A stretch of DNA of 47,048 bases, from positions 1 to 47,048 of the IMG/VR virus record IMGVR_UViG_3300043473_000082, one strand, 5' to 3'. Shown here piece by piece: positions 35,346-36,095 of the stretch; position 1 is the first letter of the stretch; each line of letters opens with the position of its first letter. The position numbers and the translations under genes are program-made. The notes under the pieces are model-generated. The model searched no databases. It saw nothing but the letters and a program-made list of their open reading frames with translations, and was not told the origin of the DNA. Origin of the DNA: a virus.

Positions 35346-35402
35346 GGTAAGGAGTATTGACCTGGAAAGTTGAAAAATTGAAAAAATTTTTGCGGAGGTC
35401 AA

Positions 35403-35445
35403 CGCACGGCACAGCAACGCTGTACCGTGCGGTGCATTCCGCACC
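35403..35445 (+). promoter_or_regulatory. Two adjacent stem-loops in the leader of the PEP-CTERM gene (also usable as terminator of the upstream operon)
   Basis: CGCACGGCACAGC-AAC-GCTGTACCGTGCG (one mismatch), then GGTGC-ATTCC-GCACC. Preceded by TTGACC (35357-35362) and an A/T-rich tract. Confidence 0.55.
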
Positions 35446-35466
35446 TTCCCTGATCAGGAGCATTCT

Positions 35467-36039
35467 ATGAGAAAACTTTTACTTGCGACCACGGCGTTAC
35501 TAGCTTTGACGACGGCCAGCCAGGCGGCGTTCGTTAATACCTTGGGAAATAACCCGACCTCTGCCACCGGGCACTTCTCCAACGCGGTGAACAACTCCAC
35601 GTTTGTGGATGATTTCACCTTCACGTTGAGTGGCGGAACGCAGTTTGTCGCGTTCGCTTCCGCCACCAACGACTTCGCCGGGCCGGGAGATTTCATCGCC
35701 AATTTCACCGGGCAGTTGTTCTCGTTCGGTACGGACTTGCTGCCGTTCACGGCGGATGACTTCGCGGTCAATCCGATTGCGACCCCGCATCCTTGCGCGG
35801 ACAACCCGGACAACTGCCAGGCCCTATCCGGCAGCGCCCTGCTCGCGGCGGGCGGCTATTACCTGCAGTTCACCGGCACCGGCGGCGGCACCGCCGGCTA
35901 CGGCGGCGACCTGACCACTGCGGCGGTTGCCGCGGTGCCGGAGCCGGCCACCTGGCTGATGATGATCCTTGGCTTCGCCGGCATCGGCAGCGTCTCGCTG
36001 TTCCGCCGCCGGGGCGAGCACCCGTTCCGGCTGGCGTAA
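35467..36039 (+). CDS. Secreted PEP-CTERM (PEPxxWA-type) sorting-domain protein with FxDxF motif
   Basis: 190 aa. Signal peptide [20 protein letters not shown], FVDDF motif, and C-terminus [27 protein letters not shown] (PEP motif + TM helix + Arg cluster). Confidence 0.8.
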   Translation: [190 protein letters not shown]

Positions 36040-36065
36040 CGCCGCGTTCGCCAGACGGCATCAGA

Positions 36066-36095
36066 GACGGGAGGACAGGCCCCTGTCCTCCCGTC
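36066..36095 (+). terminator. 13-bp GC-rich stem-loop just after the PEP-CTERM gene
   Basis: GACGGGAGGACAG-GCCC-CTGTCCTCCCGTC, starting 27 nt after the stop. No clear U-tract. Confidence 0.6.

Follow-up and report, generated by a model that had tools for sequence, protein, structure and literature searches.

The virus genome IMGVR_UViG_3300043473_000082 from IMG/VR (positions 1 to 47,048; this whole stretch of 47,048 nucleotides is called the window below) carries, at 35467-36039 on the plus strand, a gene for a protein with a PEP-CTERM sorting signal, the type of C-terminal tail that exosortases process. The exosortase/PEP-CTERM system is widespread in environmental bacteria, and its biochemistry and purpose are largely inferred. 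Our preferred reading, which we hold with some confidence but well short of certainty, is that the gene is phage accessory cargo whose product would be exported by the Sec pathway, recognized by an exosortase of the host, and delivered to the envelope or the exopolysaccharide (EPS) layer. What appears to be new is the setting, in which exosortase substrates recur as cargo under selection in many unrelated phages, none with the enzyme, and the cassette form, in which conserved ends go together with a dedicated, covarying leader RNA.

An initial annotation, made from the letters of the stretch and a list of its open reading frames (ORFs), had placed here a 190-amino-acid (aa) product with a Sec signal peptide, an FVDDF motif, and a tail made of a PEP motif, a transmembrane (TM) helix, and an Arg cluster; each of these was found where it had been put. 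The gene starts with ATG and encodes 190 aa plus the stop codon. Its Sec-type signal peptide (residues 1-20; 35467-35526, predicted cleavage between SQA and A) was judged by inspection, by conservation of A20, and by a helix in the structural model: it has a basic MRK n-region, a Leu/Ala-rich core, and a small-x-small site in keeping with the -3/-1 rule, and A20 does not vary in an alignment of 50 homologues. The same alignment shows no variation at F46 and F52 and at least 90% conservation of D48; FVDDF corresponds to residues 46-50. The mature domain (residues 21-153; 35527-35925) was delimited by conservation, an AlphaFold2 model, and Foldseek matches, and the PEPxxW sorting signal (residues 157-182; 35935-36012) by hidden Markov model (HMM) matches, hydropathy, and the model. 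This signal consists of V157-P158-E159-P160, W163, a hydrophobic stretch at 163-179, and the basic cluster R180-R182; a Kyte-Doolittle scan flags a TM segment from residue 161, and AlphaFold2 predicts a helix at residues 160-181 in addition to the signal helix at residues 2-14. The spelling in the window, PEPATWL, keeps PEPxxW and has L in place of the final A of most homologues. The protein ends in a C-terminal extension, GEHPFRLA (36013-36036), recognized by aligning homologues and the leader-preceded genes described below, most of which share its final (F/L)R(L/F/I/W)A.

HMM searches, which had been proposed as a check of the family, placed the protein above the curated cut-offs of NF038126, the FxDxF family PEP-CTERM protein (61.1 bits, cut-off 50; residues 8-177 aligned to profile positions 3-162 of 165), NF035944, PEPxxWA-CTERM (39.5 bits, cut-off 35), TIGR02595, PEP-CTERM (19.6 bits, cut-off 16), and PF07589, PEP-CTERM (27.6 bits, cut-off 20.7). 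The PEP-CTERM matches lie at the extreme C terminus, within residues 156-182 of 190 (HMM coverage 157-182 and 156-181). A PHROG search with the protein matched no family. As judged from its sequence, the protein is a new, distant member of the known FxDxF PEP-CTERM family.

The gene is carried by a phage, as had been proposed. Bases 1-127 of the window are identical to bases 46922-47048, an exact 127-nt direct repeat at the contig ends, which indicates a circular assembly; the window is thus the complete, circularly assembled genome, ∼46.9 kb, of a podovirus-type phage. The claim that this genome has no exosortase also stood. None of its 58 called genes encodes a polytopic membrane protein (at most two hydrophobic segments each, and none in genes of at least 200 aa), and the 14 Pfam families matched by 60 window ORFs include no exosortase, integrase, or recombinase. 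Searches by tblastn with an XrtV-like exosortase, the Novosphingobium XrtV, EpsI, and the XrtV accessory protein gave no match, either in the window or among the phage loci. Taken together, the hydropathy, Pfam, and tblastn results indicate that the phage genome lacks an exosortase; the last of them also led us to reject phage-encoded sorting helpers. An exosortase encoded in the same genome, one criterion for a PEP-CTERM protein, is absent from the complete phage genome itself.

Genomic linkage points to a particular host enzyme. When all fetched loci (designated here by L and P numbers) were screened for polytopic membrane proteins, we found L048, a 3.3-kb contig of 53% GC in which a PPIase-like gene is followed by an XrtV-like exosortase gene and then by an FxDxF homologue that is 52% identical to the window protein and has the same tail type. 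The exosortase (323 aa) scores 312 bits with the XrtV model (cut-off 313) and 171 bits with the generic exosortase model (cut-off 105.6). The sole plasmid gene annotated as xrtV is on plasmid p2 of Novosphingobium sp. ES2-1 (NZ_CP063447.1), in a sphingan-type EPS cluster that encodes WelK, Wzz, a tyrosine kinase, an export protein, and rfbABCD together with xrtV, epsI, an XrtV accessory protein, an FxDxF PEP-CTERM protein, and a PEPxxWA-CTERM protein. The tail had been described as a PEPxxWA-type variant common in alphaproteobacteria, and its link to the XrtV system in this cluster bears that out. From the linkage in L048 and p2, and partly from the NCBIfam pairing, we presume XrtV to be the cognate sortase of the NF035944 (PEPxxWA) signal. 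GcrA, which is specific to alphaproteobacteria, is encoded by two phages (P0015 and P0009) that carry 76-78% identical copies of the gene, which suggests alphaproteobacterial hosts for these phages. The host of the window phage is probably an alphaproteobacterium with an XrtV-type exosortase.

The tails themselves vary in an informative way. In loci L025-L132, the same mature domain occurs with three of them: PEPxxW in 30 genes, VPGPxxGAGLPG in 34, and VPxPGAL/VPLPA-like in 12. Three spellings on one mature domain are the pattern expected if tails match the sortase of each host. Among these types, PEPxxW tails alone are accompanied by the leader.

Comparison with related genomes showed that the gene is accessory, as had been suggested. 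The SNF2-type helicase of the window is common to 14 IMG/VR loci. Ten of these (L011-L020; helicase 73-78% identical) share the order DNA polymerase, helicase, methyltransferase on the minus strand, small minus-strand genes, a variable slot, and a large minus-strand gene, and all 10 lack both the PEP-CTERM gene and its upstream neighbor at 34854-35345. In L023 (helicase 51% identical), the same slot holds a different, 217-aa PEPxxW gene that is preceded by the leader and has the same type of signal peptide and tail, ending in RKRR...FRVA.

The gene is also widespread among phages. A protein search gave 289 relatives, and the genomic context was examined for seven: P0004 (83% identity; serine recombinase, RecT/YqaJ, and Cro), P0011 (79%; portal, cement, major capsid, and Acb2), P0009 (78%; Prim-Pol, GcrA, and C5-methylase), P0015 (76%; GcrA, YqaJ, and RecT), P0018 (74%; P2-type tail genes and amidase), P0026 (60%; DNA polymerase A with a UDG domain and helicases), and P0092 (50%; chromosomal, at the end of a 1-Mb contig near sugar-nucleotide genes). 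Thus, the proposed search for homologues in related phages yielded copies 60-84% identical in at least six phage architectures, and every homologue of at least 60% identity with examined context is phage-like. A scan of IMG/VR with the family alignment found at least 143 loci, ∼30 of them full-length and many more by the tail alone. No relative was found by tblastn among 50,697 GenBank phage records or by a search of 72,556 plasmids. Among 14 phage-borne copies, dS is at least 1 and the median dN/dS is 0.19; in the closest pairs, dN/dS is 0.05-0.14 for the mature domain versus 0.18-0.52 for the tail. A dN/dS of ∼0.1-0.2 at such divergence indicates that the gene is kept by selection while it resides in different phages.

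A structured leader had been noted upstream of the gene, and it proved to be a covarying two-hairpin motif at 35404-35445. Hairpin 1 (35404-35430, plus strand) has a GC-rich stem whose sequence varies among loci while the pairing is kept; hairpin 2 (35431-35445, GGTGC-ATTCC-GCACC) abuts it. The palindrome CCTGATCAGG (35449-35460), preceded by a pyrimidine tract, overlaps the Shine-Dalgarno sequence AGGAG (35456-35460); an alternative form, CCTAGCTAGG(AG), stands at the same place in other loci. The same order recurs 5' of PEPxxW genes: a variable GC-rich hairpin, a second one of 5 bp (GGTGC-loop-GCACC) that abuts it, a stretch of pyrimidines, and a 10-nt palindrome (CCTGATCAGGAG or CCTAGCTAGGAG) that overlaps the Shine-Dalgarno sequence before the ATG. 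The fold of the window leader has a z score of -3.0, and RNAalifold predicted both helices from 20 sequences. Paired cells make up 91.6% of this alignment, compared to 76.2% in column shuffles and 27-52% with slid partners, and 11 of 14 pairs show double-sided changes, a number that none of 500 shuffles reached. Compensatory changes were found in all nine pairs of hairpin 1. Hairpin 2 is 100% paired in all sequences, with the variants GCTGC/GCAGC, GGTAC/GTACC, GATGC/GCATC, and GGTTC/GAACC. Both helices recur in 20 instances outside the model-building set, with compensatory changes in 6 of 10 pairs. One position has G-U pairs in 7 of 20 aligned sequences, and antisense scores are much lower; these observations indicate that the structure is read on the sense strand, in RNA.

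The leader is tied to a gene class. A covariance model run over 1.9 Mb of fetched DNA gave ∼56 matches at an E value of <1e-5, on the gene strand and all ending at a start codon. The 43 distinct downstream ORFs all begin with an MRKLLL...-type signal peptide, and the complete ones carry a VPE(P/A/L)(S/A)TW tail except for L102, a weak 34.7-bit match with a VPIPGAL-type tail, and L072, a spurious 2-aa ORF. At least 40 PEPxxW-tailed genes are preceded by the leader; the mature domains, which span 185 to 263 aa, are unrelated to each other, and the four genes that were tried all match PEPxxWA-CTERM. No Rfam 15 family matched 35384-35469 even at an E value of 10, and we found no paper describing the leader in a search that did not cover all journals. 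We consider the leader a candidate for a new cis-acting RNA element associated with PEPxxW genes.

Several other explanations of the leader were tried and rejected. A sigma-54 promoter within hairpin 1 (CGGCAC-N5-CGCT) would have its -12 GC out of register, and the sequence of hairpin 1 varies between loci. An integron attC-like site does not fit a motif that lies 5' rather than 3' of the ORF, at a fixed distance and strand relative to the Shine-Dalgarno sequence and ATG, with sense-strand G-U pairs and no GTTRRRY core. The single-sequence fold also closes the junction by a third helix, in which 5' GGUCA pairs with UGAUC, but other loci do not conserve it. Finally, the leader does not look like a general feature of bacterial XrtV substrates: among the handful of bacterial loci available, it was not detected 5' of the chromosomal L006, of the XrtV-linked L048, or in the Novosphingobium locus.

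The mode of transcription suggested by the initial annotation, namely, a self-contained promoter-gene-terminator insertion between two operons, is not supported in that form. The AT-rich spacer upstream (35346-35403), with TTGACC at 35357-35362 and GAAAAAATTTTT, is present as described, but a sigma-70 scan found no promoter in it. Between 34400 and 37300, the sole promoter-like sites are two sigma-70-like matches (34459-34488 and 34502-34530) in a divergent control region at 34459-34530, shared with a Cro/excisionase-like gene on the opposite strand. The 13-bp GC stem-loop after the gene (36066-36095, 27 nt past the stop codon) is real and strong, with a ΔG of -34.5 kcal/mol, a z score of -5.4, and none of 200 shuffles as stable; it has no T-tract. 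Among 37 cassettes, 29 have a strong post-stop hairpin (z < -2) and 11 have a T-run. Given these sole promoter-like sites, the simplest view is that the cassette belongs to a small operon that extends rightward from 34535 to ∼37271, and such an operon, starting at ∼34460-34530, probably carries the PEP gene. Several loci have the post-stop hairpin within the coding sequence of a further small ORF. This ORF, whose single-pass product ends in ...GW.xAY..D.WRDR, stands just 3' of the PEP gene in L007, L008, L005, L023, L100, L136, L140, L141, and L159; the window lacks it.

The upstream neighbor is likewise at odds with an isolated insert. The gene at 34854-35345 (plus strand; 163 aa, one TM segment, C terminus ...DVCRRHNMRKVVTGRSWRCRK) matches no Pfam, NCBIfam, or PHROG family. 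A partner gene ending in ...C.RH.MRKV...W(R/K)C(R/K) is found 80-140 nt before the leader and PEP gene in the window and in L007, L023, L030, L039, and L149. In L149, hairpin 1 directly adjoins the stop codon of the upstream gene; the leader is therefore intercistronic there, with no room for a promoter. Comparison of the window with two of these loci revealed opposite profiles. With L039, the end of the upstream gene, spacer, and leader are 81-82% identical, compared to 52-57% for the coding sequence and 39% downstream; with L030, conversely, the coding sequence is 77% and the leader 62% identical, and the spacer tract GAAAAAATTTTTGCG is shared. This switch at the start codon indicates that reassortment of modules takes place around the leader. 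Four contigs carry two leader-preceded PEPxxW genes in tandem, each time with differing mature domains: L005 (8984-9664 and 10001-10588), L034 (683 and 1799), L100 (1381 and 2278), and L115 (8945 and 9980). On these grounds, we propose, more tentatively than the sorting pathway itself and at somewhat less than even chances, that the genes form modular, hitherto undescribed cassettes of tailed phages in an uncultured, probably alphaproteobacterial host group, reassorted by recombination at their conserved ends, in which a leader, a Sec signal, and an XrtV-type PEPxxW tail surround interchangeable surface-binding domains that would be installed on the host surface or matrix via the exosortase.

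A membrane role independent of the exosortase is the strongest competitor, although we think it unlikely. The product would then be a tail-anchored inner-membrane protein, e.g., a superinfection-exclusion or lysis-timing factor, with a PEP-like tail that, inherited from a bacterial ancestor, would be no more than a TM anchor with positive-inside residues. The phage has no sortase, a TM helix plus an Arg cluster would suffice for anchoring, and the partner at 34854-35345, like the small downstream ORFs at other loci, also encodes a single-pass protein, which could indicate a membrane complex. An anchor has no need, however, of V157, P158, the E/P positions, and W163, which lie on the periplasmic side of the helix and are all conserved in phage copies despite a dS of at least 1. 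The occurrence of one mature domain with three tail types that match known sortase signals is what co-adaptation to different sortases would give, and a bacterial homologue adjoins an exosortase gene in L048; both observations favor recognition by an exosortase over simple anchoring.

The structure of the mature domain bears on what the cargo might do. AlphaFold2, run on the 50-sequence alignment, gave a confident model (pLDDT 87.3, pTM 0.71) in which the mature domain is an eight-stranded beta-sandwich with strands between residues 22 and 153. Cys110 and Cys117 are invariant among homologues, which fits an extracytoplasmic protein. The best Foldseek matches in the PDB (E ∼1e-4, target-normalized TM-score 0.55-0.67) were PPC/collagen-binding domains of clostridial and Bacillus collagenases, the claudin-binding C-terminal domain of Clostridium perfringens enterotoxin, and carbohydrate-binding modules. 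A search of BFVD returned generic beta-sandwich matches alone, many of them distal domains of tail fibers, and neither the PDB nor the BFVD search gave an enzyme-like match to the mature domain. The mature domain may be a binding module. We also considered a receptor mimic related to the phage's own tail fibers and rejected it, since BLASTP, phmmer, and a family profile found no similarity to window proteins.

These properties of the mature domain also weigh on a second competitor, which we regard as improbable and less credible than a membrane anchor: that the protein, made in bulk, is an exosortase decoy or inhibitor that occupies XrtV, blocks maturation of the host's PEP-CTERM proteins, and loosens EPS or flocs so that phage can spread, with no surface-binding effect of its own. 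A decoy would explain why tail, signal peptide, and leader are conserved while mature domains interchange across at least 40 cassettes, and the tandem cassettes in L005, L034, L100, and L115 would suit it as well. It would not explain why, in the closest pairs, the mature domain is under the strongest purifying selection; the invariant Cys pair and the confident fold likewise argue for a function of the domain itself. That the gene is a neutral passenger or bacterial DNA miscalled as viral, through recent capture or mis-binning, is very hard to believe: although the contig is metagenome derived, IMG/VR calls are predictions, and bacterial homologues exist at ∼50% identity, the genome is a complete circle in which hallmark genes of phages are found all along and cellular genes are absent, the GC content of the gene is in line with that of the genome, and the divergent copies under purifying selection in at least six phage architectures, phage-like in every examined context at 60% identity or above, speak for a role in phages.

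The preferred reading, cargo sorted by the host's exosortase, can be drawn out as follows. During infection, the gene would be transcribed as part of the rightward operon from ∼34460-34530, and the leader may control it post-transcriptionally through mRNA processing, stability, or translation. Sec would export the protein, whose C-terminal helix would keep it anchored in the inner membrane; an XrtV-type exosortase of the host would then recognize VPEP...W and cleave it, and the cleaved protein would be passed to the envelope or the EPS layer, where the beta-sandwich may bind a surface glycan or protein. The phage could benefit from an altered surface or matrix of the infected cell, e.g., from receptors that are masked or occupied, so that further phage, including progeny, would not be lost on infected cells or debris; changed cohesion of the matrix is an alternative benefit. 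Any particular benefit of this kind, be it receptor masking or matrix remodeling, is much less probable than the sorting pathway as such. The wider unit keeps its leader, signal peptide, and tail and exchanges its mature domain; recombination reassorts it among phages.

Several observations weigh against this reading. The Foldseek matches are generic beta-sandwiches, with TM-scores of 0.35-0.42 when normalized by the query, which makes a binding module a weak inference. No sigma-70 -35/-10 pair was found in 35346-35466 with an Escherichia coli-type consensus. Scans with PHROG, Pfam, and NCBIfam found no integrase or repressor; by its gene content the phage does not look temperate, and the usual explanation of morons, that they benefit a lysogen, thus does not obviously hold for its genome. 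The closest isolated phages are distant and have mixed hosts (Microcystis, Rhizobium, Nostoc, and Octadecabacter). Pattern scans of 185,579 GTDB species genomes, limited by the patterns used, found neither the protein subfamily nor the leader; with no host named by these scans, we can only infer that the host has XrtV. No experiment is known in which an exosortase cuts an FxDxF-family PEP-CTERM protein, and how exosortases work chemically is itself unproven.

If exosortase substrates are indeed phage cargo, the sorting pathway would be open to foreign proteins and worth exploiting in infection, and phages may use it to remodel soil bacteria at their surface or in their matrix. The phage genes would also supply small, diverse, and naturally portable substrates for direct tests of exosortase cleavage and attachment. 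Because a PEPxxW tail implies an XrtV-type exosortase, the tail variant could serve as a handle for predicting the hosts of uncultured phages. Should the modular cassettes be borne out, viruses would for the first time be seen to exploit exosortase sorting, and the cassettes would provide a tractable set of natural substrates for working out exosortase function.

The remainder of the window is organized as follows. PHROG and Pfam matches identified a major head (capsid) protein (4745-5863, minus strand), a portal protein (6941-9562, weak match), the large terminase (9556-11133), tail fibers (12836-14044 and 17874-19277), a primase-helicase (22905-25361), an exonuclease (25780-27027), a family-A DNA polymerase (27888-30032), the SNF2-type helicase (31079-32485), a DNA methyltransferase (32778-33338), and an SU10-type adaptor; the Cro/excisionase-like gene (34199-34465, minus strand) diverges from the control region. 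Megablast of window bases 1-25000 against the 50,697 GenBank phage records gave no match. The closest capsid of an isolated phage is that of 'Microcystis phage Mae-Yong1326-1' (53% identity), and the next closest is that of Rhizobium phage RHph_N65 (40%); these two hosts make a strange pair for a genome of 63% GC. Between the structural and replication modules lies a low-GC stretch (∼19800-22900; 0.53-0.58 versus ∼0.63 for the genome) with few, small ORFs, which could be an origin or regulatory region. Two tail-fiber-type genes, 12836-14044 and 14393-16105, share segments of 90-92% identical DNA (13071-13179/14679-14787 and 13747-13813/15370-15436), as might be left by recent duplication or module exchange between receptor-binding proteins.

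Repeats mark two further regions. Periodic 15-nt repeats (CTTGTCGGCGGCGGC-like; 5-aa repeats on the minus strand) are found at 1-202, 46341-46557, and 46862-47048, and longer shared segments at 350-443, 46182-46237, and 46722-46815; these identify the genes at ∼325-828, 46113-46691, and ∼46600-46929 as paralogues with repetitive Ala/Lys/Asp-rich tracts. Directly 3' of the cassette, 36098-37271 (plus strand) holds some five small ORFs, paralogues of one another arranged in tandem (36118-36321, ∼36319-36533, 36530-36715, 36712-36918, and 36915-37271), each with an RIEQLEAAL motif. Two of them end in LDQSSPPKAS(T/P); a 43-nt core occurs five times, and the junction CACC(A/G)CCCAAGGCCAGC(A/C)CATGA, in which stop and start codons overlap, three times. 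The array matched no PHROG family. Among the relatives that share the helicase, L016 and L018 are both on IMGVR_UViG_3300021082_000020 (94,958 bp), which has two window-like replication modules ∼46 kb apart; it may represent a concatemer, or the assembly may have fused two related genomes.

Among known systems, the XrtV system of Novosphingobium p2 is like the window protein in the HMM families of both protein and tail. The layout is shared as well: a signal peptide, a domain of ∼130 aa, a VPEPxTW-TM-basic tail, and a hydrophobic-x-A end. The two differ in that the window phage has no xrtV, epsI, accessory-protein, or EPS genes, the Novosphingobium proteins share the tail alone with the window protein (37% over 59 aa; 54% over 28 aa), and, unlike with the phage cassette, the two-hairpin leader was not detected in the Novosphingobium locus. 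PepA (NCBIfam NF033554) is a flocculation protein of Zoogloea that has a PEP-CTERM tail, goes with an exosortase system, and is thought to act in the EPS matrix. It resembles the phage proteins as a secreted PEP-CTERM protein, and the leader-preceded protein of L141 weakly matches the PepA model through its tail; on the other hand, PepA is chromosomal, goes with a different exosortase type, and has a mature domain unrelated to those of the phage proteins.

A PEP-CTERM-domain protein of the Dehalococcoides IME1 virus-like elements, HOG10, is mentioned in passing by a preprint, which describes neither a leader nor a sortase link nor a distribution for it; it belongs to an integrative element rather than a tailed phage (bioRxiv 10.64898/2026.09.15.751708). 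Apart from this mention, literature searches on phage or prophage PEP-CTERM, exosortase, PEPxxWA, and XrtV, which did not cover all journals, returned nothing relevant, and the initial statement that no characterized virus-encoded PEP-CTERM protein was known met with no contrary paper. For the leader, an analogy is offered by stem-loops that lie between cistrons in phage mRNAs, e.g., the RNase III sites in early transcripts of T7; they too are structures in which pairing, not sequence, is conserved, directly 5' of a gene. The leader differs in its short, abutting helices (9 bp and 5 bp) and in being tied to a gene class instead of a transcription unit.

Phage morons and lysogenic-conversion genes for surface proteins, such as bor and lom of lambda and those for Sie proteins, are a further parallel. 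Like them, the window gene is nonessential cargo in a variable slot, absent from close relatives, targeted by its predicted signals to the envelope, and followed by a hairpin. Unlike them, the cassette has no promoter of its own that we could detect, its phage lacks lysogeny genes, and its product would need a sorting enzyme of the host. The phage PEPxxW unit also stands apart from morons in having conserved ends around an exchangeable middle and in recurring across many types of phage.

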